Virus record (IMG/VR): IMGVR_UViG_2551306498_000001
Span: 5,042 to 69,041 of that record
Length of the DNA stretch: 64,000 nucleotides
From: a virus
Taxonomy: Duplodnaviria > Caudoviricetes
Direction: 5' to 3' (one strand)
The position numbers and the translations under genes were made by a program. Positions 5,891 through 31,445 of this stretch are shown here, one piece after another (position 1 is the stretch's first letter; each line of letters opens with the position of its first letter). The notes under the pieces are model-generated. The model did no database searches. It saw only the letters and a list, made by a program, of their open reading frames with translations, and was not told the DNA's origin.

Positions 5891-5903
5891 AGGAGGTTTG
5901 GAT

Positions 5904-8320: not shown

Positions 8321-8349
8321 CACCCCATAACAGAGGAAGGAGCGGAGAT

Positions 8350-9150
8350 ATGAAGATGCCCAGGATTCTACACTACCCAGGGAGCAAATGGAGCATGACG
8401 GATTGGATTATCAGCCAGTTCCCTGATCACACCACATACTTGGAACCCTTCTTCGGTAGCGGAGCCATACTTTTTAATAAAAGCAGATCTATTCTCGAAA
8501 CGGTGAACGACCTGGACGGTGAGGTATCTAACCTGTTTCAGATCATTCGGGATCAGCCCGAAGAACTGGCCAGACTTATTCATTGGACTCCATATGCCCG
8601 AGAAGAGTATTACAAGGGCTATGAAACCGAAGGGGACGATATCGAACGGGCACGCAGATTCTTGGTCCGTTGCTGGATGGCCCGAGGCGGAAAAACAAGT
8701 GATCGGACAGGATGGAGGCACATCATTGATTTGAACGCACCTCATCCAGCTCGTGACTGGCAGAAGCTACCGGACAAAATCATGCAAGTGACGGACCGCC
8801 TAAGGGATGTGCAGATAGAATGTCAGCCTGCTGTGAAGCTGATTGAACGATATAAACGCCCCGAAGTCCTTATATATGCAGATCCACCATATATCCTATC
8901 AACTCGCAGTAAGCGGATGTATAAGAACGAAATGAATGAGGATGATCACACGGAACTACTTGACGCTTTAATGGATCATCCTGGACCGGTTGTACTTTCA
9001 GGATACGCGCATCCGATGTATGACGAGCGATTGGCAGAGTGGCGCAGGGAAACGAAGTCGGTCAAAGCAGAAGCTGGTCGGATCCGGACCGAGGTTTTAT
9101 GGATTAATCCGATAGCTGCTGGAAAAGTCGGACAGATGGCACTTTTTTAA
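8350..9150 (+). CDS. Orphan DNA adenine methyltransferase (Dam/D12 class)
   Basis: 'YPGSKW', 'YLEPFFGSGA', 'NDLD', catalytic 'DPPY'. Start at ATG 8350 after RBS, not the track's 8179. Confidence 0.92.
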   Translation: MKMPRILHYPGSKWSMTDWIISQFPDHTTYLEPFFGSGAILFNKSRSILETVNDLDGEVSNLFQIIRDQPEELARLIHWTPYAREEYYKGYETEGDDIERARRFLVRCWMARGGKTSDRTGWRHIIDLNAPHPARDWQKLPDKIMQVTDRLRDVQIECQPAVKLIERYKRPEVLIYADPPYILSTRSKRMYKNEMNEDDHTELLDALMDHPGPVVLSGYAHPMYDERLAEWRRETKSVKAEAGRIRTEVLWINPIAAGKVGQMALF

Positions 9151-9276
9151 CAGAGGAAGGGAATACCCTCCCTTCCCACCACACACTACAAAGTTAATAA
9201 AATTGGGAGGGTACCGCTCGATTTACATTTATTAGATAAATTATTGGGTTTAGGCCCACCAAAGGAGAGATAACAC

Positions 9277-9456
9277 TTGCCTGAAATTAAAAATGACATT
9301 GTATACGTTGTGAGAAATGAATCAACAGGTGATATCGAAATGGCGACCACCAATGACTTTGAAGCCTGGTGTTACTACCGTGATGTTCCAACGGTGTCGC
9401 TAAGTGTGTTCATCAAGAAAAACATGATTTCTTATTCACCGCCTTCAAACAAATAG
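9277..9456 (+). CDS. Hypothetical 59-aa protein (not in track)
   Basis: TTG after AAAGGAGA; MPEIKNDIVYVVRNESTGDIEMATTNDFEAW... Confidence 0.55.
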   Translation: MPEIKNDIVYVVRNESTGDIEMATTNDFEAWCYYRDVPTVSLSVFIKKNMISYSPPSNK

Positions 9457-9493
9457 CTGTGAGGCTCGGGCCTCTAACCAAGGAGGGATACAG

Positions 9494-9622
9494 ATGGGCT
9501 TCAAAGTTTTAGCGCCACATGAGGTTAAGTGCATGCAATGCCCTCGCAGGGTGAGAGTCTTCGGAAACAAGTCATATGTGGTATGTGACAAGTGCCTTCG
9601 TAAACAGTTTAGTAAAAAGTAA
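9494..9622 (+). CDS. Small zinc-ribbon protein (42 aa, not in track)
   Basis: MGFKVLAPHEVKCMQCPRRVRVFGNKSYVVCDKCLRKQFSKK; RBS AGGAGG. Confidence 0.6.
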   Translation: MGFKVLAPHEVKCMQCPRRVRVFGNKSYVVCDKCLRKQFSKK

Positions 9623-9640
9623 TTTTGGAGGGATATACAG

Positions 9641-9961
9641 ATGGACTATACAAAATTCACCGAAGATCTGAAAGCAGCACACAAGGCCGCAAAGGAAGCA
9701 ACAGAAGGCATGCAGGACGGAGGCACAGCCAATCTAGATAAGTTGTTCATCCGGTTGCCAAGAGCGCGGGAAACCAAGGTTCTGGAAGCGATAAAGGAAG
9801 CTGGTTTGTATTGCAGAGCTAAGAGCCGTTGGATCGGAGACGGATACATGATCACGGTTAGCGGAGCGCAGGGCAATGTCAGGGAGAAATCAGTCACCGT
9901 ATTTGCAACAGAAATGCACGAAAGAGGATATGAGATTATGCCGTATCGCCAAATGGATTAG
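9641..9961 (+). CDS. Hypothetical phage protein
   Basis: 106-aa ORF with RBS GGAGG. Confidence 0.7.
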   Translation: MDYTKFTEDLKAAHKAAKEATEGMQDGGTANLDKLFIRLPRARETKVLEAIKEAGLYCRAKSRWIGDGYMITVSGAQGNVREKSVTVFATEMHERGYEIMPYRQMD

Positions 9962-9965
9962 CAAG

Positions 9966-10154
9966 ATGGCAGGCATACCGATCAAGAGACGTCTGGCACG
10001 ATTCTACAGGCACCTTGAAGACGGAGACGAGGTGTTTGCCATCGCTGAGTGCCGGGACGGATACGTTTACTACAACCCAATAGACGGACGTGGAGAGTTG
10101 GAGAAGATGCTATCCCAGCAGTTCTTTATGGAGTATGAGTGGATTCAAGATTAG
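9966..10154 (+). CDS. Hypothetical protein
   Basis: ATG 9966 (MAGIPIKRRL...) within track ORF 9876..10154. Confidence 0.55.
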   Translation: MAGIPIKRRLARFYRHLEDGDEVFAIAECRDGYVYYNPIDGRGELEKMLSQQFFMEYEWIQD

Positions 10155-10166
10155 GGAGGAAGCAGC

Positions 10167-10346
10167 ATGAAACGGATCGTGTTCAGCCGGAACAAAGGCG
10201 TTGGGTATCAGACTTACAAGGAAACATTTGAATTTGATGATGATGTTACGGAAGAAGAAATAAACGAGGCCTATAAAGAATGGGTTTGGGAAGAAGTCGG
10301 GGACGAATTCACTTGGTATGAAGAAGGGGAGGAAGAACAGTCATGA
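10167..10346 (+). CDS. Acidic 59-aa phage protein (not in track)
   Basis: MKRIVFSRNKGVGYQTYKETFEFDDDVTEEEINEAYKEWVWEEV...; RBS GGGAGG; ATGA overlap with the next gene. Confidence 0.65.
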   Translation: MKRIVFSRNKGVGYQTYKETFEFDDDVTEEEINEAYKEWVWEEVGDEFTWYEEGEEEQS

Positions 10347-15792: not shown

Positions 15793-15963
15793 ATGGATGG
15801 TCATTTTTACAGCAGAAATGAACCGGCTATTCCAAGAGTATCGGACAAGCAGCCGGAACAGTGTCGTGGGTGTGGATGGGGAACTTGGACAGGTGTAAAT
15901 CAATTATGCATTATGCCACGGTGTTGGAAAGGATCAGAAGAGTCAAAGAAGGTGATTGAATGA
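15793..15963 (+). CDS. Small Cys-rich protein (56 aa, not in track)
   Basis: MDGHFYSRNEPAIPRVSDKQPEQCRGCGWGTWTGVNQLCIMPRCWKGSEESKKVIE; RBS GGAGGGA; ATGA overlap with the recombinase. Confidence 0.65.
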   Translation: MDGHFYSRNEPAIPRVSDKQPEQCRGCGWGTWTGVNQLCIMPRCWKGSEESKKVIE

Positions 15964-16520
15964 GAAAGGTACAACCAATTCGCGACGAACGTATTATAGA
16001 TGGGATGAAGGAATACTTCTATATACGAAGCATGCGTAATTACTTATTTTTTTGTATGGGTATATACAGCGGACTTCGTGTTTCTGACTTACTTAGTCTT
16101 AGAGTGTGGCAAACTAAGGGAACTCACATAAGCATGGTTGAGCAAAAGAACAAGCATGCTAAAACATTTATAATTCATCCAAGTATTCGATCAGATTTGG
16201 ATGACTACACTGCGCACATGTTCCCGAATGATTGTCTATTTCCAAGCCGCCAAGTTAAAACAGTAAGTCGAATGCGGAAACAGCCGATTGATCGAACCAC
16301 TGCATATCGTTTTCTGAGTGAAGCAGCTCGTGAATTCAGATTGAAAGACATCGGTGTTCACTCGCTGCGGAAGACTTGGGCATACCGCCTTTATATGGAC
16401 GATCCAGAGAATTTAGCGTTACTAATGGAGATGTTCGGACACATCGATCCAAGAGAGACTTTGGACTATATTGGGTTAACTCAGGACATGATGGACAGAG
16501 CAATTCTGAAATTAAGGTGA
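15960..16520 (+). CDS. Small tyrosine recombinase (catalytic domain only)
   Basis: 'SGLRVSDLL' (R), 'HSLRKTW' (HxxR), 'MFGH', 'TLDYIG' (Y); 186 aa, just upstream of terS. Confidence 0.9.
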   Translation: MRKVQPIRDERIIDGMKEYFYIRSMRNYLFFCMGIYSGLRVSDLLSLRVWQTKGTHISMVEQKNKHAKTFIIHPSIRSDLDDYTAHMFPNDCLFPSRQVKTVSRMRKQPIDRTTAYRFLSEAAREFRLKDIGVHSLRKTWAYRLYMDDPENLALLMEMFGHIDPRETLDYIGLTQDMMDRAILKLR

Positions 16521-16782: not shown

Positions 16783-17511
16783 GTGAGCAGAAAACAGAAT
16801 CCGAATCGGAAGAAAGCGTTCAAGATATGGAAAGATAGCGGCGCTGTGATGAAGCCGAAAGAGATTGCGGAAAAGTTGGGCATTACACCTGAATCAGTCC
16901 GAAAGTGGAAATCGCTTGATCAATGGGAAGGGAAGATGGCTAACGCTAAACCAGGTGCTCCTCGTGGCAATCAGAATGCTAAAGGTAACAGAGGGGGTAA
17001 AGGGGGGCCGCTGGGCAATCAGAAAGCTGTAACACATGGATTGTTCCGTAAGTTCGAGCCGCAAGATCCTGAGTACCTAGAACTCATAGATATTGTTCAG
17101 CAAATGGAACCGATAGATATGATCTGGCATAACATCACCCAGGGTTTCCGTAAAATCATTTGGGCGCAGCGTATTTTCTTCATCAAAGACAAAGAAGATA
17201 TGACCAAAGAGTTGAAAAGAGAGAAACCAGGTGAGTATGGAGATGAATACGAATGGGAAATTCAATTCGCTTGGGATAAATACGCTAGTTTCATCAAGGC
17301 AGAGGCTACGGTCATGCGTGAGATCAGGGGAGCTATCAAACAATTCCTTGATATCGCGCCGCAGGAAGATGAGCGAAGATTGAAACTGGATCAGATGCAG
17401 GCCAAAGTTGATAAAACCCGCCTTGAGATTGAGAAACTTAAGAACGGCGATGGAGATACCGAGGATGATCTGATCGAAGATTGGGTAAAGGCGGTGGAAA
17501 CTGGTGAGTAA
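16783..17511 (+). CDS. terS: Terminase small subunit
   Basis: N-terminal HTH (KEIAEKLGITPESVRKWKSLDQW), 'GAPRGNQNAKGN...HGLF' motif, upstream of terL. Confidence 0.88.
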   Translation: MSRKQNPNRKKAFKIWKDSGAVMKPKEIAEKLGITPESVRKWKSLDQWEGKMANAKPGAPRGNQNAKGNRGGKGGPLGNQKAVTHGLFRKFEPQDPEYLELIDIVQQMEPIDMIWHNITQGFRKIIWAQRIFFIKDKEDMTKELKREKPGEYGDEYEWEIQFAWDKYASFIKAEATVMREIRGAIKQFLDIAPQEDERRLKLDQMQAKVDKTRLEIEKLKNGDGDTEDDLIEDWVKAVETGE

Positions 17512-18958
17512 AGAGTCTCCGCAAACAAAACGCCGCTTTGCTGCATTCAAAAAACGCATTCCAGAGTACCGGAAGAACCCGGTTCTTTTTTGCGTGGAGC
17601 TACTGAAATTCACTCCTGATGAGTGGCAAGCAGAAGTGTTAATGGATATAGCGGGAAGCCCACGGGTGTCGGTGCGATCTGGACAAGGTGTTGGTAAGAC
17701 CGGCCTTGAGGCTGCGGTGGCATTATGGTTCCTGTCGTGCTTCCCGTTTCCGAAGGTTATCTGTACTGCACCGACTCGTCAGCAGTTGCACGATGTCTTG
17801 TGGGCAGAGATTAGCAAGTGGCAAGAGAAAAGCCCTTTGCTCAAACGGATACTCAAGTGGACGAAGACTAAGATTTACATGAGAAATTACGAGGAGCGCT
17901 GGTTTGCTACAGCCCGGACAGCAACTAAGCCAGAAAACATGCAGGGTTTCCATGAAGACTACATGCTTTTCATTGTGGACGAAGCTTCCGGGGTTGAAGA
18001 TCGTATCATGGAGGCTATCCTGGGAACGCTCTCAGGTGAATTCAATAAGCTGCTCATGTGTGGGAACCCAACTCGGACCAGTGGTGTATTCTATGACTCT
18101 CACAACCGAGACCGTGCGGATTACAATACACATAAAGTGTCCTGCTTAAACAGTCCTCGAACAAGCAAAGAGAACATAGCTATGCTTGAACGAAAGTATG
18201 GAAAAGGTTCTGATGTATGGCGTGTACGGGTGGAAGGGGAATTCCCTCGTGGAGAATCTGAAACTTTCATTGCTTTAGAAGTGGCTGAATTTGCTGCCAA
18301 AGATGTAACCCTAGAACCGATAGGAGATATCCTGACCATCGGCTGTGACGTTGCCCGTTTTGGTGATGACGAGACGTCAATGTACGCGGGGATAGGTCCT
18401 GTAACAGTTGGGCATCATCATCATTTCAAGAAAGATACAATGGTTACTGCTGGCTGGGTGTTGAATTTGATAAGAGAATTGTTGCCACAGTACCCAGAAG
18501 TCGTTCATACGAGAATCAGAATAGATGATACCGGTGTAGGTGGTGGTGTCACGGATCGTTTGAATGAGGTTATAGCAGAAGAAGGACTCCCGTATGAAGT
18601 CATTCCAATTAACAATGGATCATCATCTTTGGATGAACATTATGGAAACCTGGGCGCTGAAATGTGGGCTTATATAAAGGGGCAACTGGAACAAAATATG
18701 AGCAATTATATGAACAATGAGCAGGCAGTCCTACAACTTCCTGATGATGATATACTCACTTCTCAATTGACTACAAGAAAATGGTCAATGACCAGTAAGG
18801 GGAAGATACTCCTTGAAAGCAAGAAGGACATGAAAAAACGTGGTCTCAAGTCACCAGATAGAGCGGACGCATATGTTCTCACCTTCGGTGAATATATGCT
18901 GGGAGCACATCAATCTATAATGCTTCCGTCAATAAGTAGTGTGTCAATAAAAAGATAA
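17504..18958 (+). CDS. terL: Terminase large subunit
   Basis: Walker A 'SGQGVGKT', Walker B 'FIVDEAS', nuclease 'GCDVARFGDD' and 'SPDRADA'. Confidence 0.95.
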   Translation: MSKESPQTKRRFAAFKKRIPEYRKNPVLFCVELLKFTPDEWQAEVLMDIAGSPRVSVRSGQGVGKTGLEAAVALWFLSCFPFPKVICTAPTRQQLHDVLWAEISKWQEKSPLLKRILKWTKTKIYMRNYEERWFATARTATKPENMQGFHEDYMLFIVDEASGVEDRIMEAILGTLSGEFNKLLMCGNPTRTSGVFYDSHNRDRADYNTHKVSCLNSPRTSKENIAMLERKYGKGSDVWRVRVEGEFPRGESETFIALEVAEFAAKDVTLEPIGDILTIGCDVARFGDDETSMYAGIGPVTVGHHHHFKKDTMVTAGWVLNLIRELLPQYPEVVHTRIRIDDTGVGGGVTDRLNEVIAEEGLPYEVIPINNGSSSLDEHYGNLGAEMWAYIKGQLEQNMSNYMNNEQAVLQLPDDDILTSQLTTRKWSMTSKGKILLESKKDMKKRGLKSPDRADAYVLTFGEYMLGAHQSIMLPSISSVSIKR

Positions 18959-19127
18959 ACTGAAGATTAAATCTCCCAATCATATAGTGGGGATAATAAA
19001 AAAGAGCATAGCATCACCTTCAAGGATTGTGGGATGCTATGGCCCACGAAAGTGACGTTAAATTGACGATATGTTTGCAATCGAATGACCCTGAAACAGC
19101 AATAAATTAGGCACATAGAGAAGTTAA

Positions 19128-19181
19128 GCCCTCTCCAGTGTGCCTAGTGCTCGTTACAGTACTAGGCACACTGGAGAGGGC
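19128..19181. repeat. Long GC-rich inverted repeat (21-bp perfect stem)
   Basis: GCCCTCTCCAGTGTGCCTAGT (19128-19148) / ACTAGGCACACTGGAGAGGGC (19161-19181); no U tract. Confidence 0.85.
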
Positions 19182-19444
19182 CCGACAAGAATCTTTTGAA
19201 ATCTTGAAGATGTGGCGTTGTGGATGTGGGGAAAGCGGGTAAGATCACCGTTAAAAATATATATCATAAGTAAACTGAAAAACAATTTGAAAACGACGCA
19301 AAAACGTGTTTTTTTGTAACTCATGAGTTTTATTTATGTATCTCTAGGTATATTGATCTGTATTAGGATTACGTTTATAGGAAAAATGTGCTATTATATT
19401 CTCGTAAATTGTCTTATTTACTATTTTTAAACCTTGGGGGAAAA

Positions 19445-20761
19445 ATGATGCAATTACTAACCGAAAGTTATGCGATTACTGGGGCATGGGTTGTTAACAC
19501 GTATAAGTCTATTCAAAGTTTCAATCTAAATGAAGCAGTCTTCGATCCATACGAATCAGTTATTATTTCTGCAAAGGTTAGTATGCTGTTGTCTCCTATG
19601 CGAAGATTGGGTAGAGTAAATGCTACTCAATTTGATATTTACAGGAAAATGGCAGGATTAAAACCTAGAGAATGCACTGATGTATTAAAAATTCTTGAAC
19701 AGATGGAAGCAGTACAAATAAGCTGGAGTGGTTCTGCTTTAGATGATGTTCCTCTGACTTCTATAACAGTGAGAAAAACCGATAAAGTGGACATCCTTTC
19801 AGTAACAGGAGAGCTATTCGAAAAGCTAAATCCTAGTGTCCAAGCTAAGTTGACCATTCATATGTTGCAAGAAACTTTAAAAATTCCGATACCAAAAGAT
19901 TTATTGATTGATTTGCTAACCCATAAAGGATATCCAGAGCAACTGATTAAAATAACGTTAAAACATATGCTTGTTTTAAATATTTTATCGGAGACAAAGG
20001 ATACAATCCAGGGCAACGCATTAATTTATAATCCTAATGCTTTTCAAGCAAACGCAAGTGATGTGTTTGTGACAATAAATGATTTGAATCCTAATGAAAA
20101 ACAAGAAGCACTTGATATTTTGGAGCATGTAAGATCTAATCCTGGTACTCCTCTACGCAGTGATTTCAATCAAAATACGGTGGGACTACTTATTAAGTGT
20201 GGATTAATTGATTCATCTCGTATTGTAACAAGTAGAGGGAAAATGAAGCAAGACTTTGTTACAGCGCCATATATTTGGGGAGCTTTAGGAGCAAACGAAT
20301 TAAGCAGTGATGTATTAGATGATGCTAAATTGTTCCTAAATTGTTTGAGGTTTGGCCAACTGTTTTCACAAACTGGTAGAGGGAGAATAAATGATCCTTC
20401 AGTTTTGATTAATGCTCTCCTTGAAAAAGGGACAGTTGGTCCTGCAACGGCAATCGGTGAGGACTACCCGATGCCTTTAGCACGAGGTATAGTTAGTGTA
20501 GTAGAATCTAGACTGCAGCCAGGTAGATACTTCATGGAATTAAAAAAAGAAGATGTTGTTCAAACAGTGTATGAGGTTCTTGATACAAAAGGCGTCTTAC
20601 CTACTCCAATTAATGATGCAGAAATTGCTACAAAATTGAAGCAGCAAGGAAATTTCATTTCATCGGAACAAGTTCGAATTACAAGTCCGCTGCCAGCCCA
20701 ATTGGAACAAGAACGAGATAGTCTTGTGTTTTGTTTACGTACACATCGTAAGGGGCGATAA
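19445..20761 (+). CDS. Uncharacterised ~438-aa cargo protein (gene 1 of a two-gene operon)
   Basis: Long AT-rich ORF; start at ATG 19445 after GGGGG; ends 1 bp before the next start. Confidence 0.8.
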   Translation: MMQLLTESYAITGAWVVNTYKSIQSFNLNEAVFDPYESVIISAKVSMLLSPMRRLGRVNATQFDIYRKMAGLKPRECTDVLKILEQMEAVQISWSGSALDDVPLTSITVRKTDKVDILSVTGELFEKLNPSVQAKLTIHMLQETLKIPIPKDLLIDLLTHKGYPEQLIKITLKHMLVLNILSETKDTIQGNALIYNPNAFQANASDVFVTINDLNPNEKQEALDILEHVRSNPGTPLRSDFNQNTVGLLIKCGLIDSSRIVTSRGKMKQDFVTAPYIWGALGANELSSDVLDDAKLFLNCLRFGQLFSQTGRGRINDPSVLINALLEKGTVGPATAIGEDYPMPLARGIVSVVESRLQPGRYFMELKKEDVVQTVYEVLDTKGVLPTPINDAEIATKLKQQGNFISSEQVRITSPLPAQLEQERDSLVFCLRTHRKGR

Positions 20762-20762
20762 C

Positions 20763-22511
20763 ATGAAAAAGGATTTTAAACCTAAAAGTCTTAGAAAAAA
20801 GCAAGATAAAATAAATGTGTCAGAAAATGATAATCAAAATAGTAAAAAAGCAACTAAAACAGTAAGTGTACTCCCTGTAAAGGAGAGCCATGTAGAGGAC
20901 ACACCTTTAGAGAAAGAGAGCCATGTAGAGGACACACCTTTAGAGAAAGAGAGTCATGTAGAGGACACACCTTTAGAGAAAGAGAGCCATGTAGAGGACA
21001 CACCTTTAGAGAAAGAGAGTCATGTAGAGGACACACCTTTAGAGAAAGAGAGCCATGTAGAGGACACACCTTTAGAGAAAGAGAGTCATGTAGAGGACAC
21101 ACCTTTAGAGAAAGAGAGTCATGTAGAGGACACACCTTTAGAGAAAGAGAGCCATGTAGAGGACACACCTTTAGAGAAAGAGAGTCATGTAGAGGACGCC
21201 TCTACAGGGAGGGAGAGCTCTGTAGAAGACAGTATTTTAGCGAATTCCCCCCCTTTTGAGGATGCTTCGACAAAAAGATCAACTCTTGAGAGTAACAGCG
21301 GTAAAAGATATGAAGCTGAGAAAGTGGAAACTAAGCAAGTGGGAGCTAAGTCTAGTGAAAGTTCTGTGACTATCGGTACAAGAATTCCACGAGTTCAGCT
21401 AGTAATTGGAGACCCACTGGAATACAGAGTTGCTAGAATGTTTATGATGCAAGGATATTTTGTTAGACGAGGAATCAATATCTACACTACAGGATACATT
21501 GATACTGCAACTGATGTAGATGTTCTAGCAATTAAATATTCGGATTCATTTGGTAGAGTTATGGCGATTTCTGAATGTAAGTCCGGTGAAAGTAAACCTC
21601 TAGATAGAATCTTCTGGTTATCTGGATTGAAGAATTATTTAAATGCCAACAGGGCCTTGTTAGTAAGAAAGCCAACACGTTGGAATATCAAAGACTTTGC
21701 GAAAGAGACAGGCGTTGAAGTTATTGACAATGATTATATAGATAAGCTAGAAGAAATCTTAGAAATAAACAAGGATAAATGGTTAGGTTATACAGATAGA
21801 GAATTTTTTGTTCAAAGAAAGAATGCATGGAATGAAATTTTAAGAAAAGATCCTCTACTTAGTGAACTGTTCCATACATTAAGTGGAGAAGCAAGATTTA
21901 ATGAGCCATTTGGTGCAATAAATTATTATGTACACCACATGAGATCATTAACAAAACTTTATCACCGTACAGGCTATGGTGATAAAAAATCATTGATTAA
22001 GTATTTACTAGCAGATGCATCGTCACAATTAATTATATTTTTTATGGAGATATGCAAATCAACGTTTGATTTGACATCTACCGATAGGAAGGGATTTGTT
22101 TCTAAAAAATTAACTCATGGTGAAATGGATCCAAGTCTAACTCAAAGAATATTCGATCATGCATACTACCTTTCAAAACAAGCTGCATCATATTATTCAG
22201 GGGAACCAGTAGAAATGGATCGGAGCATGTTTAGTATGCCTGAGCCTGATTATTCTGATGATTTGATCGCGTTTATAGAATATCTTATTTCTAGAATGTC
22301 TTTTGTGTCGCATCTACCTTACAGTTGTGATCTACTATTAGCAGAATCTTTTGTGAAGGATAATTATCATTTTAAGCTTAAGGACAATATTGACAGCACC
22401 TTGCTTGTTAGAACTTTACAGGGGTTAGACCAGTATATAAAAATGTTAGTGAAGTTAGACTGTTTGCCTATTCAAGTTCTGGATATTATAGGAAAGCAGT
22501 TAAATAAGTAA
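20763..22511 (+). CDS. Repeat-containing protein with PD-(D/E)xK (restriction-endonuclease-like) domain
   Basis: 'LEYRVARMF...TDVDVLAIK...ISECKSG' fits E...D...ExK; N-terminal 11-aa tandem repeats. Confidence 0.7.
   Translation: MKKDFKPKSLRKKQDKINVSENDNQNSKKATKTVSVLPVKESHVEDTPLEKESHVEDTPLEKESHVEDTPLEKESHVEDTPLEKESHVEDTPLEKESHVEDTPLEKESHVEDTPLEKESHVEDTPLEKESHVEDTPLEKESHVEDASTGRESSVEDSILANSPPFEDASTKRSTLESNSGKRYEAEKVETKQVGAKSSESSVTIGTRIPRVQLVIGDPLEYRVARMFMMQGYFVRRGINIYTTGYIDTATDVDVLAIKYSDSFGRVMAISECKSGESKPLDRIFWLSGLKNYLNANRALLVRKPTRWNIKDFAKETGVEVIDNDYIDKLEEILEINKDKWLGYTDREFFVQRKNAWNEILRKDPLLSELFHTLSGEARFNEPFGAINYYVHHMRSLTKLYHRTGYGDKKSLIKYLLADASSQLIIFFMEICKSTFDLTSTDRKGFVSKKLTHGEMDPSLTQRIFDHAYYLSKQAASYYSGEPVEMDRSMFSMPEPDYSDDLIAFIEYLISRMSFVSHLPYSCDLLLAESFVKDNYHFKLKDNIDSTLLVRTLQGLDQYIKMLVKLDCLPIQVLDIIGKQLNK
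20883..21197 (+). repeat. In-frame 33-bp tandem repeat (VNTR): 9 full units plus a partial
   Basis: GAGAG(C/T)CATGTAGAGGACACACCTTTAGAGAAA = ESHVEDTPLEK; the only variation is a synonymous C/T. Confidence 0.95.
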
Positions 22512-22698
22512 AACAAAAGAGAGACGTCACATTAAGGCGTCTTTTTTGTATCCAAAAGGAGGCTGCATCATATGGAAGATACATTCGTCTAGGGTAATTC
22601 TACAAAATAGATTCATCAAAGACTTATAAAACGAAGCATCCGCGGAGAGGAAACACATTCAAAATGTCGAAATATGAATATCTAAGGAGAGTGATTAT

Positions 22699-23088
22699 GT
22701 GAATCCAAATCAAGAGAAAGATCAATTAATCAATACACTATATCATTTCAAACGGATCATGCATTTTTCTTATTCTGATGCATGTGAGGCTTATAATACA
22801 TTGGAGAAGCATGATGAAACGACGATTTATATCGTTGCTCAAGGTTACTTGTCCATGTCTCAACAATGCCATATAGAGTTGTTAAGAATTTATCGGGAGA
22901 AGGAATTGGACCGAGGAGAAATAGAAAGTTATATTAAAGCTTATGAAAGTTATATCTTTGAGTTAAAACAAGTCATTACTGACAAGGATACAAACACATC
23001 TTGGTTAAGCAGCACGCATGACAGTTTAATTGAAGCATGGAAATCAACTGATGCGTTCATTCAACAGTGGATCAATAATACGATTTAG
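22699..23088 (+). CDS. Hypothetical helical cargo protein
   Basis: 129 aa; RBS AAGGAGAG; followed by terminator AGCACC..GGTGCTTTTT. Confidence 0.7.
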   Translation: MNPNQEKDQLINTLYHFKRIMHFSYSDACEAYNTLEKHDETTIYIVAQGYLSMSQQCHIELLRIYREKELDRGEIESYIKAYESYIFELKQVITDKDTNTSWLSSTHDSLIEAWKSTDAFIQQWINNTI

Positions 23089-23338
23089 TATCACTAGCAC
23101 CCATCGTGGTGCTTTTTCTTTTGCCTTCATATGACAGAATGTGAGCCGTTCTGAGCTCGTTTATATGAGAACGTTCGGTTTGCAAGGGATCAGTCGATTG
23201 AAGAGCGGAAGACAGCGTCTGAGCGAGCGTACGCATGCATATGATGGTCACTTAACATTGAAACCAACTCAACAAAAATAAGGTTCTTGACTTCATTCTT
23301 TTAATTGTATGATACTGGAAATATAATTTGGAAATGGG

Positions 23339-23740
23339 GTGATGGTGATGTCGAAAAAAGTACATGAAGAAACAAATCAAGATTTTATTTCTATGGTATC
23401 CAAACAATTTGAATACAATGATTCAGCATCTTATGAACTCTTACAAGCTTTAAGGGATTATGAAATACCGGGTGATCTAACTGCGTTCGAAATATCAGAA
23501 CATATCTATAATCTTAATTGGGATAATTATGATGTTATTTCCCTTTCTACTAAATCAGGGCTCATCGGAAAATACCATGGAGAAAGCAAAGAGAACCTTA
23601 GAAGTAGGAGTCATTTACCACCATATACAAGAAGCTATGGAATTAAAGCTGGAATTTACTTAGTATCCATTTTAGAAAAGAATGATGATGATTATCGTAG
23701 TATTGATTTAATTCGAGAGCATAGAGTAAATTCTCTGTGA
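23339..23740 (+). CDS. Hypothetical cargo protein
   Basis: 133-aa ORF downstream of a sigmaA-like promoter. Confidence 0.65.
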   Translation: MMVMSKKVHEETNQDFISMVSKQFEYNDSASYELLQALRDYEIPGDLTAFEISEHIYNLNWDNYDVISLSTKSGLIGKYHGESKENLRSRSHLPPYTRSYGIKAGIYLVSILEKNDDDYRSIDLIREHRVNSL

Positions 23741-23775
23741 CATGCCTTAAAACTATTAATCAAGGAGGAATTTCA

Positions 23776-24024
23776 ATGCCAAAGTTTGTAGTTGGAGATC
23801 AGATCCATTTTTACGAAGGGCCAATGAAAATCGCCGAGTTATCAGTTGAAGAGGTTGATAGCGAATCTTACAATTGGCTTTATCATCTGGAACCTGGTGA
23901 TGAAATCTTTGGAAAGATTCGTCCAAAGCGAACTGTGGCTTCTGTCACGAAAGTCAAAGATGGCCTATCGGAAGAAGAAAATAGGTATTCCGATGGTATT
24001 TACCATGTACATCTAAGAAAATAA
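23776..24024 (+). CDS. Hypothetical cargo protein
   Basis: ATG 23776 after AAGGAGG; terminator at 24034-24056. Confidence 0.65.
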   Translation: MPKFVVGDQIHFYEGPMKIAELSVEEVDSESYNWLYHLEPGDEIFGKIRPKRTVASVTKVKDGLSEEENRYSDGIYHVHLRK

Positions 24025-24138
24025 CTATTGCGTAAGCACCTTAGGGTGCTTTTTTTGTTGCCCCTTATATCAACTTGACCAACCTCACTTATTGTCTGAT
24101 ACTGGAAGATGTATTAGAAATAGATTGGGAGTGGTCGG

Positions 24139-24855
24139 ATGAAGAAGAAGTATATTGCAATAATTGCTATAGGGATTTTTCTAATATGGGCTGGTTCAGC
24201 AGCGGCGATTTATAGATGGGTAGGGGATGATGATCGCGGAACATTTGGGGATATGTTTGGGGCGGTCAACGCATTATTTTCGGGTTTCGCATTTGCCGGG
24301 TTGATTTACACCATTGCAGTGCAGCGACAAGAGTTGTCACTACAACGAGAAGCTACGGAGATGCAGACCGAAGAATTGAAGTTACAGCGAGAAGAAACGG
24401 CTCGATCTGCTGACCAATTGGAGGATCAGAAAAACTTACTGAATCTCCAAACAGCAATGGGAATTGTTAATGATCTCATCCAAACTAAAAATAGACGAGC
24501 TGAAGAAATTCAGTACTATTTAAACGGAGAATATTATACGGGATATAACGGAATTTTTAGGATGCTGACACATGATCAATATCTAGGAGGAGTGAAGCCT
24601 ACAGAGAACTCCTATTTCATACAAAGTTACCTTAATACATTCTTTTTTATATTAGATTTTATTGCAGGATATAAACTTCAAAATGATCAAAAGGACCTCT
24701 TGGATAATCTTTTAAACATGAATATGACAGACGATGAAGTTATGCTGATTTATATGGCAGTAGAACAAAACCAACAGAGATTAATAATGCTTAAGGTTCA
24801 TGGATTCTATCCGCGGCACCAGAAAATAACTGGGCAAACAGTGAAGCTATCCTAG
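24139..24855 (+). CDS. Membrane-anchored protein resembling putative abortive-infection (putAbiC-like) proteins
   Basis: Two TM segments with 'GTFGDMFGAVNALFSGFAFAGLIYTI', then a QR.EL coiled coil and a helical C-terminal domain. Confidence 0.55.
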   Translation: MKKKYIAIIAIGIFLIWAGSAAAIYRWVGDDDRGTFGDMFGAVNALFSGFAFAGLIYTIAVQRQELSLQREATEMQTEELKLQREETARSADQLEDQKNLLNLQTAMGIVNDLIQTKNRRAEEIQYYLNGEYYTGYNGIFRMLTHDQYLGGVKPTENSYFIQSYLNTFFFILDFIAGYKLQNDQKDLLDNLLNMNMTDDEVMLIYMAVEQNQQRLIMLKVHGFYPRHQKITGQTVKLS

Positions 24856-24901
24856 TAAAAGGATGGCTTTTTAATGGTATAAATTTATGGAGGTAATTGA
24901 T

Positions 24902-25057
24902 ATGAACATCAGAATCGTGCTAATCGATCAGATTAATGCAGCAGCATACAACCCCTTGGTTGACTTTCAGCCAGACGACCTCGAATATGAGAAGCTTCGC
25001 CGCAGCATAGAGGAACGAACGTACTGGGCATATGGCCGCGGTCATCAGCGATACAAG
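24902..25057 (+). pseudogene. Remnant of a ParB-like phage gene
   Basis: MNIRIVLIDQINAAAYNP.VDFQPDDLEYEKLRRSIEE, then frameshifted NERTGHMA/GHQRYK. Matches the ParB N-terminal pattern 'YNPR.D..P.D.EYEKL..SI..F...WN.RTG..VGGHQR'. Confidence 0.75.
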
Positions 25058-25238
25058 AAAATGGTCAATGACCAGCAAAGGTAAGATGCTCCTTGAAAGT
25101 AAGAAGGACATGAAGAAGCGCGGATTAAAATCACCAGACAGAGCTGACGCTTATGTTCTCACCTTCGGTGAATATTTGCTGGGGGTACCTCAGTCTATAA
25201 TACTTCCGACAATAAGTAGTGTAACCGTAAAAATATGA
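25052..25238 (+). pseudogene. Duplicated 3' end (187 bp) of terL
   Basis: Aligns without gaps to 18772-18958. Encodes TRKWSMTSKGKMLLESKKDMKKRGLKSPDRADAYVLTFGEY...; many differences are synonymous. Confidence 0.92.
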
Positions 25239-25571
25239 ACAGAGTGATTTTTTCTAGGTTAATATAAGATGATAAATGGGGAATTGACTTGGTAGTTTAC
25301 TTTTTAACAGACTAGCGATTAATCAACACCCGCAATAATAACTCCACCGAGCAAATTGATTTAAAATGTTGTGAGGAGGATGGGAACGAGAGGAACGGTA
25401 GTCTCACGATGAAGAAAATATTCTCTAATCAAACTGAAGTAATTAGCCAATCTGTTTGAGGAACTAGTCCAAAGCGCTCAGTAATACATATTAAAAAGAA
25501 TCCGTCAGTAATATTCCCAATGAAAGAATCTATACTTTTTTGTGAACATTTCCGATATATAAATTAAGGGA

Positions 25572-26282
25572 GTGATTACAATAAATAAGAAGTATACTGA
25601 ATATCCAAGTGCTTCAAAATACTTGAGTAAAGAATATGAGTTGAAAACGAAGTGGTATAAGCCAAAAAGTAAAATAAACTTAGAAAAAATAGAAACTCTT
25701 AAAGATAAATTAAAAGAAGATCTTTCATTAAGTGAATTAATGATTTTGAAAATTGATTTAGATACTGATCTAGAACAATCTAAAGGATTTGCTCCTGTGG
25801 TATCTACATTTGCAGTAGTAGTTACAATTATGAGCCTTGTTTTTAATAACTCTACCAACTCTAGTAACAGGCTGAATGACCAACTTAGCAATTTAACTGA
25901 AAAATTGAACAATATGCAGTTTGAGTCACTTCCACTCAAAGAAAAGATAGTTAAATTTTCTGATTATGCTCTTGAACAAATAGATAGTTTATCATTAATT
26001 TCAATGAAAACGACAATTAATTCCATTTCTATGGGAATGTTGGCTGTTTGCCTGATTATAATGGGGCTTTACTATTATGACTCGATCAAAACAGCTGCAC
26101 TATTAAGCTCCATTGTTTCTCAATCTTATGACGAAAAAGAAAAAGAGGAAGAGCAAGAAAAAGAACTCCATAAAATAGAGGAACTGAATAAAGAAAGATT
26201 TGAATTGAATCATGTAATTCTAAAAAAGGAGGAATTTGAACGAAAAAAAATAAGACTTCCTAATAATAAAGGAAAATATTGA
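25572..26282 (+). CDS. Membrane protein (2 TM plus charged coiled-coil tail)
   Basis: 236 aa; RBS AAGGGAG; hydrophobic segments near aa 72-92 and 150-172. Confidence 0.7.
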   Translation: MITINKKYTEYPSASKYLSKEYELKTKWYKPKSKINLEKIETLKDKLKEDLSLSELMILKIDLDTDLEQSKGFAPVVSTFAVVVTIMSLVFNNSTNSSNRLNDQLSNLTEKLNNMQFESLPLKEKIVKFSDYALEQIDSLSLISMKTTINSISMGMLAVCLIIMGLYYYDSIKTAALLSSIVSQSYDEKEKEEEQEKELHKIEELNKERFELNHVILKKEEFERKKIRLPNNKGKY

Positions 26283-26479
26283 TTGTCGATTATTTGGAGT
26301 AACGTTGAATGATGAGCCTTTACTAAAATTTAGAAATGATAGTTTTGTATTTTGAATATCAGGGCGAGAATGAAACATCTCTGAGGTGGACCTTTTCTCG
26401 CTTCTCTAATTGATTCAGTGAATTTAATAATGATTGTCGGAACGTGCTTAGGTTAATCTACTCATTTAAAGAAATGATA

Positions 26480-26960
26480 ATGGCAAGACGGAAAAGCAAG
26501 GATAAGCAGGAAGCAGAAGTGTTCCAAGGATTGACTGGAATGGGATGTTGGGAGTTATTGTATTAATGATCAGCATTCAACTTAAACGAGCTGAATGTCT
26601 TATGTGGTCCAGGATAGTAGAAATTGATAATATGGACGGAGTACGGTTTGAGCATCATCTTAATCATTTGTTTCGATCTTAGGGATACAAAGTAGAAGTT
26701 AAAAAGCATCCGGTTATTTTGGGGCGGATCTTATTATGTTAAAGAAGAACAACGAATTGTGCAGTAATAGCCAAGCGTTATAAAAATGTAGGTTTGAGAG
26801 TTGTGCAGGAAGTCCAAGGGGCTAAGGCACACTATAAGCTATGGTCATTACTAACAGTAGTTTAATTCAGTAGGATTATGTGCTTGCAAAATCAATCGGA
26901 GTCAGACTGATCAAGATCAACAGAAATAAACTTTGAAGATGATCTTGGCAATGAAATAGA
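26480..26960 (+). pseudogene. Degraded Mrr-like restriction endonuclease
   Basis: Fragments across frames: MARRKSKDKQE; EIDNMDGVRFEHHLNHLFRS*GYKVEV; FGADLIM; AKRYKNVGLRVVQEVQGAKAHY; MVITNSS; LAKSIGVRLI. Several stops and frameshifts. Confidence 0.75.
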
Positions 26961-27073
26961 GAGTAACTGGTATAAAAAACTTTGAAGCGTAAAGACGAGG
27001 GCATGATTGAGCGCAGCATTTTTTGCTGCAGACTGTACGGCCGCCGATCTTTAAATTTTTGAAGGAGGTACAC

Positions 27074-27322
27074 ATGGACGTTATAAACGATTCAATAGAA
27101 AAGTCATTTACAGACGTTTCGATGGCAATGATTGAAGCATTAGGAATTTATTTGGTTTTACCAATCATAGTAGCAGCTGTTTTAGTTAGGTTTGTTTTTA
27201 GATTGAGAGGCCCAGCTTTTAAACTTGTATATGGAATTATAGCATTTGGTTGCTTGTACCTCTTTGTTTATAAGGGCATTCCTCATTTTCAGATCGCGTA
27301 TGAAAGCAGATTATCTAAATAA
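27074..27322 (+). CDS. Small 2-TM membrane protein
   Basis: ATG 27074 after GAAGGAGG; followed by a terminator-like hairpin with a T run (~27333-27368). Confidence 0.7.
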   Translation: MDVINDSIEKSFTDVSMAMIEALGIYLVLPIIVAAVLVRFVFRLRGPAFKLVYGIIAFGCLYLFVYKGIPHFQIAYESRLSK

Positions 27323-27383
27323 TACATATCACAGCCAAAGTCGTTCCTTCACTGGATCGGCTTTTTTTATTTTAGGAATTGAA

Positions 27384-27520
27384 GTGATCAGCAGCAGAAG
27401 ACGGAAGAAGCATTGTGTTCGTCCCAAAAAGTAGCCAAAAAAGGAATGCAAAGGTTGTGCATGGGTAGATGGTATGTAGTAAAGCAGTTCTGTAGTAGGC
27501 CTGAATGCCCGAAGGAAGGA
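27384..27520 (+). pseudogene. Remnant paralogue of the small Cys-rich gene at 15793
   Basis: K*PKKECKGCAW ... KQFCSRPECPK compared with the intact KQPEQCRGCGW ... NQLCIMPRCWK. Confidence 0.55.
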
Positions 27521-27543
27521 ATTTCCTCTTGATTGTCGAATTA
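27515..27543 (+). promoter_or_regulatory. Sigma-H-like promoter
   Basis: GAAGGAATTT-N11-GTCGAAT fits the B. subtilis sigmaH consensus RNAGGAWWW-N11/12-RNNGAAT; lies upstream of the 27584 gene. Confidence 0.45.
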
Positions 27544-27583
27544 GCTTATTTAGATATTATTTTTTTATTTAGGAGGAATTATT

Positions 27584-27805
27584 ATGGAACTGCATTCAGA
27601 ACAAGTGAGATCCGGCATGATTAATGGCAAAATGTACTCAGGATTTTTTACACTTTTGCCTGATGGTCAATACATGGCAACTGTTGTTGGACATGAAACA
27701 AGCGAAAACGGATTTGGCGAGCACCACACTGAAATGTGCAACAGTAAAGAAGAAGCAGTTGCTACGATCAATGAGATTTGGGGGAAGATTGGGCGAGCTA
27801 ATTAA
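27584..27805 (+). CDS. Hypothetical cargo protein
   Basis: 73 aa; RBS AGGAGG. Confidence 0.7.
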   Translation: MELHSEQVRSGMINGKMYSGFFTLLPDGQYMATVVGHETSENGFGEHHTEMCNSKEEAVATINEIWGKIGRAN

Positions 27806-27880
27806 ATAAAATAATTCTTAAGTCGACCAAAATTTAAATATCAGAGAAAGACTATTTTAACAAGGAGTAGTGAAGGGATT

Positions 27881-28165
27881 ATGGAGCGAAAAGAAATTTT
27901 GATTGGAAATAAAAAGTATGAGTTGTTGTCTTTTGAAAATATCCAACATATAGATTTTGATGGTCAGGAAATGGATGCGGTATCTGTCTTTTTCAAAGTA
28001 GAGACACAAGAAGAATGTATGGATACAGCAAATTTGTACAGTTCTCGTAAGCATTATTCTGTCAAGCTCCCAGATGAGGATACATTTTACGGACTTTCTG
28101 TTTCTGCTTCTTCTGGAAGTGAAAATGATAGAGTATATTCAGTCCATGTTGTTTTCGGGATATAA
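27881..28165 (+). CDS. Hypothetical cargo protein
   Basis: 94-aa ORF. Confidence 0.65.
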   Translation: MERKEILIGNKKYELLSFENIQHIDFDGQEMDAVSVFFKVETQEECMDTANLYSSRKHYSVKLPDEDTFYGLSVSASSGSENDRVYSVHVVFGI

Positions 28166-28275
28166 CTCAAGATTAAGTATCTTTCTTGGTTGTGCTGTTT
28201 GTTTGCGAATTTATTAAAAGTAATGGAAACAAAATATCACAACGCCCTTTTTATGTTTTAATTTGAGTATAGAAA

Positions 28276-28395
28276 TTGGAGTTACAAGTTATACCGATCA
28301 ATCAAATTAATGAAATCAGCTTAGAACGATCGCCTGGAACGAATGTACCGGTAAATGCTAGGAGTCATCAACGGCATAAGATTATATTGAAATAA
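28276..28395 (+). pseudogene. Second, more decayed ParB-like remnant
   Basis: (M)ELQVIPINQIN ... IAWNECTG ... SHQRHKIIL across frameshifts. Confidence 0.55.
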
Positions 28396-28481
28396 CTGGT
28401 TTATATTAAACTGTAGGTATCTATAACGGAAGTAGGTATCTTAAGTCGAGTTTTATTAGTCTATTTTAGGGAGCTGATTTG

Positions 28482-29633
28482 ATGGGGAAATTCATTGCAT
28501 TAAAAGTTGGTCAAGGAGATTCATTCTATCTTGAACATGAGGAAACATCTATTTTAGTAGATGGCGGAAGAGCACAAGAATATTTTCCTGATCTTTTTGA
28601 AGCTACAACTAGCAAGGATAAAGTTGATATTATTGTCTGTACACATAGTGATGCTGATCATGCATATGGTATACTGGGATTTTTAAAAAGTCATCTTACT
28701 TGTAAAGAGGTTTGGTTACCAGGAATTTGGACAGACAGACTTCAAGATTTGCTTGAAAGTGAAAATAAATTTATTGAAGAATTAGTTAGTAGGATTGATT
28801 CTTTAGGTAATGATGACACTGAGTTTAAATTAGAAGAGTATGGTGATATCCATTCAGAAAAAATACATACTAAATTGAAAGAAACCAATGGTATGGATGA
28901 AAAACCAATATCCTTAATAATGGACAGAATAGAGGAATCTTATTCTGATGTTGATTTCAAATTAGAATTAACACTTAATCATTACTCTTATCTTCCAATT
29001 ATTTGGAAAGATAGGGGCTCATTTAAATGGGACTTATTTGTAGAAGCGATTGATACGGCTAAAATCATAAAGGAAATTGCTTCTCAAGCTTATCATAAAG
29101 GAGCCTTAATTAGATGGTTTCAGTATGATGATAGAAGAAGTGAGGGTGGGGAAAAAGGGACTTTAGTGCCAATAAACTCTATTGAAATTATTAAAGTCTC
29201 ACCACGAAAATTAGATGCGCTAGAATATCTCTCTCTTTCCCGTGCCAACAAGCTTAGCCTTGTATTTCACTCTGAAGGAAATGATAATACCCCTGCAGTA
29301 TTATTTTCGGCAGATTCAGATTTGTCGTTTAATCAAGAAATACCTTGGACGAATGGAATGATAATAACTGCAGCACACCATGGGGCTGAGAGCAATAAAG
29401 GGTTTTACGATAGATATGAACTTGATAAAGGGACTAAGTATATTAAACCAATATGGGTTCGAAGTGATGGGAAATATGCAAAGAGACCTGGGAATTGGTT
29501 TACCTCTATTACATCTGACTCTAAATTCTGTACCTTATGTCGTGGTGGTGGAAAAATAAAGCAAAATGTCCATTTAGGCATTGTTAACTCTAATTGGTCG
29601 GCAATATCTACAAATCTCTGTAGTTGTAAATGA
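28482..29633 (+). CDS. Metallo-beta-lactamase-fold hydrolase (ComEC/Rec2-like, stand-alone)
   Basis: 'VGQGDSF', 'LVDGG', 'THSDADH' (HxDxDH), 'AHHG'. Confidence 0.85.
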   Translation: MGKFIALKVGQGDSFYLEHEETSILVDGGRAQEYFPDLFEATTSKDKVDIIVCTHSDADHAYGILGFLKSHLTCKEVWLPGIWTDRLQDLLESENKFIEELVSRIDSLGNDDTEFKLEEYGDIHSEKIHTKLKETNGMDEKPISLIMDRIEESYSDVDFKLELTLNHYSYLPIIWKDRGSFKWDLFVEAIDTAKIIKEIASQAYHKGALIRWFQYDDRRSEGGEKGTLVPINSIEIIKVSPRKLDALEYLSLSRANKLSLVFHSEGNDNTPAVLFSADSDLSFNQEIPWTNGMIITAAHHGAESNKGFYDRYELDKGTKYIKPIWVRSDGKYAKRPGNWFTSITSDSKFCTLCRGGGKIKQNVHLGIVNSNWSAISTNLCSCK

Positions 29634-29969
29634 ATGAGATAGTTGAACTTGATGTTGTTTACAGAATGTATGATGAAAAGAAATGCTTTGTAGTGAAATA
29701 AGGCATAAAGGTGAAAGTGGCCAAAACCACTCTACTAACAAAGCAGTGTTAAGAATGAAAACAAGATGCTAGACACATTGTTACGAAATATGATGTGGTT
29801 GAAAAGGTACTGTGAAGGGTGACTGTCTCGTTCCTTCTTTGTTGGGGGGATTAATAAGAGGTTGTCCATTAAATCCGTAGTAACACTATAGTAACTCGAT
29901 GATATTATAAATCCATAGAAGTATGAAGAACTTTAGAAGGTAAGGAAACTTTTCCTGCCTTCTATTTTT

Positions 29970-31445
29970 ATGTCTGGAGGTGAAACATTGAAATGGTATC
30001 ATAAAGCCATTTATTCATTTGCGAATTCAGTTCTTCCGGCTGCCGTAAAGCGGCAGATGATGGGTATTGGTAGAATGACCTCGCCAAGGTCATCAAACGG
30101 ATGGGATATATTCAATTGGCTCCCGAAAAAGTACCAGAGAGCTCATAACATTGATCTGACTAAACTCCAAAACCATACAGCCGAGGAATTGCTTGAGATT
30201 CTTGTGTCTGTTCATCCCGATATTTCGCATGCGCTCTACAACTTTCTGCGTATGGGAGACACGCCACTTACATTTACAGCAAAGAAGCAGAGTGGCAGTG
30301 ACGATAAGAATGGGCAGAGATCGTTAGATGCAATCAAGAACTTACTGGATTCTCCACTTCCCTCACCTGGTTATCAGCATGGAAGGTCGTTGGACAAGCT
30401 TGATACGATTCAGCGGATGATGATCATGGTACGTGGGGCTTGTGCTGGTGAAGTAGTTCTTAACGATCGTTGTAACGATGTGATTGATATCATACCTGTT
30501 GACCCTGCGACGATTTGGTTTAGGAGAGAAGAGGGGACGAATCGACTTGTGCCTTGGCAATACATCAAGAATCCACGACCTCGTACTGGCGAAGAATGGT
30601 ATGGTCAGTATAAGAAGATCGATACGCCGACATTCATTTATGAAGAGTTCGATCCGATGATAGATGATCCGTATGGGCGAACACCGATATTACCTGTTCT
30701 TCAAGCGGTGTTTTTTCATTTACAGGTTTTGCAGGATTTGAAGGCAGTTGTTCACAATCAGGGATACCCAAGATTGGATATTTCCGTGGTTGAGGAAGTC
30801 TTATTAAAAAACATGCCAAATCAATATAAGAATAATCCTGCTGGTCAACAAAAGTGGTTGACTGAACGTATGAGTGAAATTATGGGGCATTTTAATTCGC
30901 TAAATCCAGATGACGCTATGATTCATTGGGATAGTGTGAAAGTTGAATATCTCAAGGGTGGCAATTCAGGACCGATGATCGACATCAAAAAATTGATTGA
31001 TATTATTGATACTCAGATGGCAACCGGATTGAAGACTTTGCTCACATTACTGTCTAGGCATCAAGGTTCCACTGAGACATACAGCTCCGTGGATACTCAA
31101 ATATATATCAAGTCTGTAGAGTCCGCACGGAACGTAACCAAGCGTTTCTGGAAGCGGGCTTTTTCTATGGCTGCTAGAGTACGTGGTATTCAAACGCTTG
31201 TTCAAGCAGATTATGCTCCGATTGATTTGCGTTCCGAGATGGAACGAGAACGAGATTTAAGAGCGAAGCTGAACAACTATGTGCTTGCAGAAAAGGAACG
31301 TTACATCACGTCTAGGGAAGCTGCTACAGAGGCTAGATGGATAATAGGTCTTGATCCTAACATTCCGCTTGAGTTAATTACAGAACTGGAGAACAAACGC
31401 TCTACTGCTCAAACACAGCCTCTTGTCACTCCGCAGAATGAGTGA
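29970..31445 (+). CDS. Portal protein
   Basis: 491 aa, first gene of the head module, 'DDPYGRTP' motif; start may be TTG 29988. Confidence 0.8.
   Translation: MSGGETLKWYHKAIYSFANSVLPAAVKRQMMGIGRMTSPRSSNGWDIFNWLPKKYQRAHNIDLTKLQNHTAEELLEILVSVHPDISHALYNFLRMGDTPLTFTAKKQSGSDDKNGQRSLDAIKNLLDSPLPSPGYQHGRSLDKLDTIQRMMIMVRGACAGEVVLNDRCNDVIDIIPVDPATIWFRREEGTNRLVPWQYIKNPRPRTGEEWYGQYKKIDTPTFIYEEFDPMIDDPYGRTPILPVLQAVFFHLQVLQDLKAVVHNQGYPRLDISVVEEVLLKNMPNQYKNNPAGQQKWLTERMSEIMGHFNSLNPDDAMIHWDSVKVEYLKGGNSGPMIDIKKLIDIIDTQMATGLKTLLTLLSRHQGSTETYSSVDTQIYIKSVESARNVTKRFWKRAFSMAARVRGIQTLVQADYAPIDLRSEMERERDLRAKLNNYVLAEKERYITSREAATEARWIIGLDPNIPLELITELENKRSTAQTQPLVTPQNE

Follow-up and report, generated by a model that had tools for sequence, protein, structure and literature searches.

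The 64,000-nucleotide stretch of DNA analysed here (the window; positions 5,042 to 69,041 of the IMG/VR record IMGVR_UViG_2551306498_000001, Caudoviricetes) contains two adjacent genes, designated gene 1 and gene 2, which are located just 3' of the terminase gene of a Paenibacillus prophage. A preliminary description had noted two long AT-rich open reading frames (ORFs) 1 bp apart, inserted directly after the large terminase gene (terL) and ending in a terminator-like hairpin, and each of these observations was borne out. The genes encode proteins of 438 and 582 amino acids (aa), are separated by an intergenic gap of 1 nt, and have a GC content of 0.36-0.38, compared with 0.43-0.50 in the flanking phage structural genes. 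The gene upstream of the pair is confirmed as terL by the 58-62 % identity of its product to TerL of phages phiEf11, CDKM9 and phiCD27; its match to Terminase_3 is weak. The features that define the unit, in window positions, are:

17504..18958, + strand: large terminase gene (terL), left edge of a cargo island
19445..20761, + strand: gene 1, ATG to stop, translated as 438 aa; protein family without prior description
20763..22511, + strand: gene 2, ATG to stop, translated as 582 aa
20883..21197, + strand: 33-bp tandem repeat, 9.5 copies, in frame, in the N-terminal tail of gene 2
22517..22547, + strand: intrinsic-terminator-like hairpin with U-run from RNA folding, closing the two-gene unit

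The hairpin has a 12-bp stem followed by the U-run, a folding energy of -15.3 kcal/mol and a z-score of -4.89, and none of 200 shuffled sequences folded as well; a simple consensus terminator scan missed it. Homologues were found down to E = 1e-262 for gene 1 and E = 1.7e-237 for gene 2, and both are therefore real genes rather than chance ORFs. It is well supported that the unit encodes a nuclease of the Mrr/Card1 type with an intact active site together with a multi-winged-helix partner, and that it moves horizontally.

A scan of one genome per species yielded 77 gene 1 loci from many phyla. Co-occurrence had been proposed as a check, and gene 2 directly follows gene 1 across these loci: wherever a locus extends downstream of gene 1, the gene that comes next in the same orientation is a relative of gene 2. 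A hidden Markov model detects 66 of these relatives, and the remainder form a single divergent subfamily in which the catalytic motif can likewise be aligned. An overlap of 1 nt between the stop and start codons is seen in 34 of 57 loci, and one of 4 nt in 11 of them. Pairwise identities of the gene 1 and gene 2 proteins are correlated (Spearman 0.91, a figure inflated by shared ancestry). One natural fusion, a Joint Genome Institute metagenome protein of 808 aa (P0168), carries gene 1 at residues 17-411 and gene 2 from residue 423; it rests on one 3.1-kb contig and two member sequences, and may be an assembly or frameshift artefact. The two genes are thus inherited as a unit and are probably also translated as one. 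Clustering of 451 neighbouring genes revealed no third conserved gene, with just the divergent gene 2 subfamily emerging, and no consistent terminal inverted or direct repeats were found flanking the pair in six loci. No cognate methyltransferase is conserved in the unit, N6_N4_Mtase being present in 2 of the 137 nearest neighbours of pair loci that were surveyed.

The encoded proteins

The gene 2 protein comprises a disordered, acidic low-complexity tail (residues 1-205; in large part encoded by the 33-bp repeat), a nuclease domain (residues ~214-340) and an all-helical domain (residues ~340-582). An AlphaFold2 (AF2) model of residues 200-582 has a mean predicted local distance difference test score (pLDDT) of 91.1 and a predicted template modelling score (pTM) of 0.88. 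In this model the nuclease domain (~125 residues) has a PD-(D/E)xK restriction-endonuclease-like alpha/beta fold, and the rest is all-helical, which agrees with the E...DxD...ExK nuclease motif and long helical domain recognised earlier from the letters of the sequence. The catalytic motif consists of E220, D251-x-D253 and E271-x-K273, and the pattern for the family is E..TDxD..(D/E)xK. When 70 homologues representing many phyla were aligned, G216, E220, R236, T250, D251, D253, an acidic residue at 271, K273, R282 and G288 proved to be shared by all 70, which indicates that the active site is under purifying selection. As judged from the aligned residues, the active site is intact and of the Mrr_cat/Card1 type. 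Structural comparison of the nuclease domain using VIA-align gave the following matches:

AF1548: Z 11.0
VC1899: Z 10.0
Can2: Z 9.2
AspBHI: Z 8.9
Cdn1: Z 8.7
MspJI: Z 7.7
FokI: Z 7.5

Foldseek ranked the matches in the same order, at E = 1e-3 to 1e-1. The best of them, archaeal AF1548 (PDB 1y88), superposes with a root-mean-square deviation (rmsd) of 2.9 Å over 114 residues at 15 % identity and, unlike gene 2, is a protein of 184 aa with no known partner or function.

The gene 2 protein of the window matched no Pfam, NCBIfam, PHROG or PADLOC model, and gave no match to Pfam Mrr_cat (PF04471) at E <= 1. Mrr_cat was matched by 3 of 69 gene 2 homologues (best E = 5.7e-6) and is present in 26 % of the members of a neighbouring Atlas cluster. 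When 101 family members were compared with PADLOC-DB v2.0.0, which covers systems up to 2023, the sole matches were to the generic model 'PD_DExK, same family as the one fused to CARF (1XMX)' in three homologues and to CARF3 in one, the latter being marginal (E = 2.4e-4). An exhaustive profile search with gene 2 recovered 572 cluster representatives (50 % identity, E <= 1e-3); among the matches listed, the best non-fragment relatives are 340-610 aa long and span both domains. The helical domain of ~240 residues is conserved across the family, and no convincing structural relative of it was found (Z <= 6, generic helical bundles).

The 33-bp repeat (Tandem Repeats Finder score 595, 97 % matches) encodes KESHVEDTPLE units. 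Neither the 92 % identical Paenibacillus silvae homologue, as annotated, nor any other homologue has it, and the repeat is therefore a recent, strain-specific expansion outside the conserved core of gene 2. Some gene 2 homologues have disordered C-terminal tails instead of the N-terminal repeat.

The AF2 model of the gene 1 protein (pLDDT 86.5, pTM 0.84) has four successive units, each of three helices and a beta-hairpin, and the protein models as an array of winged-helix units. Residues 130-198 form a winged helix that matches Rpa2 with Z 10.3 and an rmsd of 1.5 Å over 62 residues, the next matches being the cullin WHB domain, MecI/BlaI, MarR-type regulators and the MCM winged helix. The remaining three units are predicted to be winged helices from the secondary-structure pattern of the model and from weak Foldseek matches of the whole chain to the multi-winged-helix proteins RPC82/RPC62, TFIIIC tauB, STK19 and ScpB. 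These scaffolds and the cullin WHB domain share a tandem winged-helix architecture with gene 1 at the level of fold (Foldseek E = 1e-3 to 0.1, with very high whole-chain rmsd); no sequence relationship to them was found, and the likeness says nothing about function. Comparison of the model with viral structures in BFVD returned weak rows of the winged helix-turn-helix type and nothing else.

The best-conserved stretch of gene 1 is residues 321-341, in the fourth unit, and contains the motif GPATAIGEDY. The longer motif GTVGPATAIGEDYP was found at residues 329-342, and across 62 sequences G332, T335, A336, I337, G338, D340 and Y341 are invariant. The preliminary description could assign gene 1 to no family, and library searches gave the same outcome, with the winged-helix array added by the model: 32 diverse members of the family were all without a match in Pfam, NCBIfam, PHROG and PADLOC, and the Atlas clusters of gene 1 carry no Pfam 38.1 family. 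The single link to DpdG (PF28110) is a weak one, an Atlas feature score of 0.76, under the lead threshold of 0.9, and the Pfam copy used, which may predate that model, gave no match. One paper lists DpdG as a Dpd/BRIGADE component. Profile searches of PDB sequences returned nothing for either family.

Distribution and gene neighbourhoods

The pair is rare and patchily distributed. Of 93 species genomes of the genus to which the window belongs, 3 have the pair, as does 1 of 400 further genomes sampled from the phylum, and it is single-copy in the genome examined here. Bacterial loci were found in Bacillota, Bacteroidota, Alpha-, Beta-, Gamma- and Deltaproteobacteria, Acidobacteriota, Verrucomicrobiota, Deinococcota, Cyanobacteriota, Chloroflexota, Nitrospirota and Chlamydiia. 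Identity of the window copy is 92 % to a Paenibacillus silvae protein, ~40 % to proteins of Acidobacteriota/Verrucomicrobiota and ~28 % to those of other Paenibacillus species; it is thus closer to these copies from other phyla than to the latter from its own genus, which points to horizontal transfer. The pair was also found on mobile carriers, which include predicted prophages as well as plasmids: on 21 plasmids (Clostridium perfringens, Vibrio parahaemolyticus, Rubrobacter, actinobacteria), where both genes are labelled hypothetical in RefSeq, and on 10 IMG/VR contigs.

A further copy is located on a 6.5-kb contig of a metagenome-assembled genome (MAG) from Promethearchaeota, an Asgard archaeon, and represents either inter-domain transfer or a binning error.

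The neighbourhoods are heterogeneous, with a mixture of defence or conflict genes, mobile-element genes and housekeeping genes. Defence or conflict neighbours include type I restriction-modification (R-M; HsdR), prokaryotic Argonaute (pAgo, 2), MADS mad3/mad8 (3) and LmuB (2), together with type II/III methylases, PDC-M19B, TPR-CHAT and a MORC-like ATPase, and mobile-element neighbours include integrases, TraG and TrwC. At positions 1944-10294 of a deltaproteobacterial MAG contig (L018), genes for a DUF1156 methyltransferase and a HEPN(Swt1)-DUF499 protein are followed 7 nt downstream, on the same strand, by the pair, which may there be embedded in a larger defence operon. The survey is consistent with an accessory islet frequently inserted into regions of defence or mobile genes.

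Proposed function and alternatives

We infer that the pair is a defence system. The strict adjacency, coupling, co-inheritance and fusion of the two genes and the invariant active site of gene 2 argue for this, as do the fold matches to restriction nucleases and to CRISPR-ancillary nucleases, the patchy and rare occurrence across many phyla on mobile carriers and beside defence-type genes, and the location of the window copy in a low-GC island that has a terminator of its own and also contains a second gene resembling defence genes, which has the metallo-beta-lactamase (MBL) fold and is described below. We give about even odds to the reading that the two genes make up a self-contained module that spreads horizontally, is present here as a moron of the prophage, and is most likely a methylase-less nuclease system directed against phages or other mobile DNA.

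In the proposed mechanism the gene 1 and gene 2 proteins would form a stoichiometric complex. Gene 1, through its winged-helix array, would recognise either a phage factor or some property of the invading nucleic acid (modified bases, ends or replication structures), and would in this way position the gene 2 nuclease or license it. Coupling or oligomerisation would fall to the helical domain conserved in gene 2, and the acidic repeat tail of the Paenibacillus copy would be a lineage-specific addition. Host DNA would be spared because it lacks the licensing signal, a methylase-less logic as in Type IV restriction. The more specific proposal, that the pair is a new multi-phylum defence family in which a four-winged-helix subunit licenses an Mrr/Card1-type nuclease with neither a methylase nor a nucleotide signal, is plausible but on balance somewhat less likely than its negation.

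Several results weigh against the defence reading or its mechanism. Neither window protein matches any of the 5027 PADLOC v2 (v2.0.0) models as a system component, and the pair was present in no isolated phage genome searched. Examination of gene neighbourhoods, suggested in the preliminary description, upheld the expectation in part: defence genes are among the neighbours, but housekeeping functions (ribonucleotide reductase, AcrB, ABC and MFS transporters, xanthine dehydrogenase) account for many of the nearest neighbours, and the surroundings are only partly defence-like. Structural alignment confirmed just one of the proposed winged-helix units of gene 1. The gene 1 domains are near neutral rather than markedly basic (isoelectric points of 5.6-8.1), so a protein-binding role is as possible as DNA binding, and the domains may be protein-binding scaffolds instead of DNA readers.

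The general logic of a reader coupled to a PD-(D/E)xK effector is known, and what appears to be new is the partner family and the architecture. Mrr and other Type IV enzymes (Mrr_cat, PF04471), MspJI and AspBHI share with the pair the PD-(D/E)xK core, the lack of a cognate methyltransferase and the combination of a winged-helix or other reader module with a nuclease. Unlike in those enzymes, the candidate reader here is a separate protein of ~430 aa rather than a fused N-terminal domain, and gene 2 carries its conserved helical domain of ~240 aa. Classical R-M systems of types I-III include a cognate methyltransferase, which is absent from the gene 1/gene 2 unit. The CARF-fused nucleases of type III CRISPR signalling (Card1, Can2 and Cdn1) and VC1899 are among the nearest folds to the nuclease domain of gene 2, and the proximity to this group, together with the PADLOC PD_DExK matches, suggests that this domain evolved as a regulated effector. 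Unlike Card1 and Can2, gene 2 lacks a CARF or SAVED domain, and its surroundings contain neither conserved cyclase genes nor conserved CRISPR genes; the window protein gave no CARF match, its N-terminus being low-complexity repeat and its C-terminus all-helical. Regulation would therefore need gene 1 or the helical domain. No published description of the pair was found in literature searches by accession and descriptive terms, and a prior description is possible.

A serious rival, to which we give roughly one chance in five, is a toxin-antitoxin (TA) or abortive infection system in which gene 2 is a non-specific nuclease toxin restrained by gene 1, and infection or loss of the element frees gene 2, leading to cell death or to stabilisation of the plasmid or prophage. 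The gene order, with the putative neutraliser first, and the translational coupling resemble those of type II TA operons, the pair is found on plasmids and prophages, there is no methylase to shield self DNA, and among the nearest nuclease folds are those of Card1, Can2 and Cdn1, collateral nucleases that are activated by a switch. The sizes of the proteins (438 and 582 aa in the window; ~430 and 340-580 aa in the family) far exceed those of classical TA partners, however, gene 1 is conserved to the same degree as gene 2, and the natural covalent fusion suits a two-subunit enzyme better than a labile antitoxin. The sequence is compatible with both models named in the preliminary description, a sensor/effector pair and a TA pair. 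We favour a two-subunit enzyme rather than a classical TA pair, given that fusion, the large size and equal conservation of both proteins, and the presence of modification-dependent enzymes among the fold matches of the nuclease.

A little less probable again is a role in DNA processing by mobile elements unrelated to defence, in which a site- or structure-specific nuclease and its targeting subunit would act in recombination, homing or replication. The occurrence of the pair on plasmids, in regions resembling integrative and conjugative elements (TraG, TrwC), in prophages and in tRNA-flanked islets would fit such a role, and replication initiators, like partition or condensin subunits, are found among the multi-winged-helix proteins. 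The pair is nevertheless often alone amid housekeeping genes with no other mobile-element gene conserved, and the six loci lack consistent terminal repeats. In the window it is low-GC cargo with its own terminator that interrupts the head-morphogenesis operon, and it is outside the phage core and missing from relatives that have the same TerL. It is very unlikely that the pair is a nuclease complex for cellular DNA repair or housekeeping: NucS/EndoMS and SfsA are also among the PD-(D/E)xK fold matches, with lower scores, but neither protein matched a housekeeping family, a match of the kind that the preliminary description had named as telling against defence, and the presence of the pair in so few genomes of the genus and phylum, its variable context and a phylogeny at odds with taxonomy all speak against such a role.

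If the pair proves protective, a compact two-gene system with a new sensor or targeting protein family would join the known defence systems, and the nuclease domain of Mrr, MspJI and the CRISPR-ancillary nucleases would gain a new partner architecture. Licensing by a four-winged-helix subunit, if true, would be a new way to tell foreign from self DNA. A function for the pair would also annotate several hundred bacterial protein clusters, since Pfam, NCBIfam, PHROG and PADLOC contain no model for the gene 1 family and both genes are hypothetical in RefSeq.

The cargo island between terL and the portal gene

The remaining features of the locus that bear on the setting of the pair are:

16783-17511: small terminase gene (terS)
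18959..19444, + strand: leader of 486 nt, from the terL stop to gene 1
28479-29633: MBL-fold gene, 384 aa, in the same cargo island, with PADLOC MBL-domain matches
29970..31445, + strand: portal gene, right edge of the ~11 kb cargo island, 30-36 % identity to annotated portal proteins

The terS, terL and portal genes are contiguous in phages with a related TerL (phiEf11, CDKM9, phiCD27). In the window the portal gene begins at 29970 and is followed by homologues of head decoration protein D and major capsid protein E, so that ~11 kb of low-GC cargo (18959-29969), the pair included, separates terL from the portal gene. The pair is absent from the terL-portal junction of phages with the same TerL type. 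The last 192 bp of terL (18772-18963) are repeated with 85 % identity at 25052-25243, 6.3 kb downstream, and this duplication brackets the first ~6 kb of the cargo with the pair inside it. The first 6 kb, including the pair, probably arrived by recombination at a terL tail. The 11-kb island, partly bracketed by the duplicate, may point to a moron hotspot in the head-morphogenesis operon of Paenibacillus phages, or the cargo may alternatively indicate a prophage that has lost its viability.

The N-terminus of the MBL-fold protein matches the MBL domains of PADLOC RTasMBL (DRT), LmuA and Avs1a (E = 1e-14 to 1e-10), and its gene is a second candidate defence gene in the island. An ORF of 186 aa with a tyrosine-recombinase domain is located at 15960-16520, just 5' of terS, a position and size that are odd for a phage integrase.

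The leader of the pair contains a hairpin formed by a 24-bp near-perfect inverted repeat (19128-19181, -53 kcal/mol, z = -9), which begins 170 nt past the terL stop, has no adjoining U-run and is unique in the genome. It may act as a terminator, a recombination site or a regulatory site. Its Rfam matches were rejected as generic miRNA-hairpin noise below gathering scores. A consensus scan found no + strand promoter in the leader; a candidate extended -10 promoter, TG-n-TATTAT, can be read by eye at ~19389-19397. The sequence GGGGGA is located directly 5' of the gene 1 ATG.

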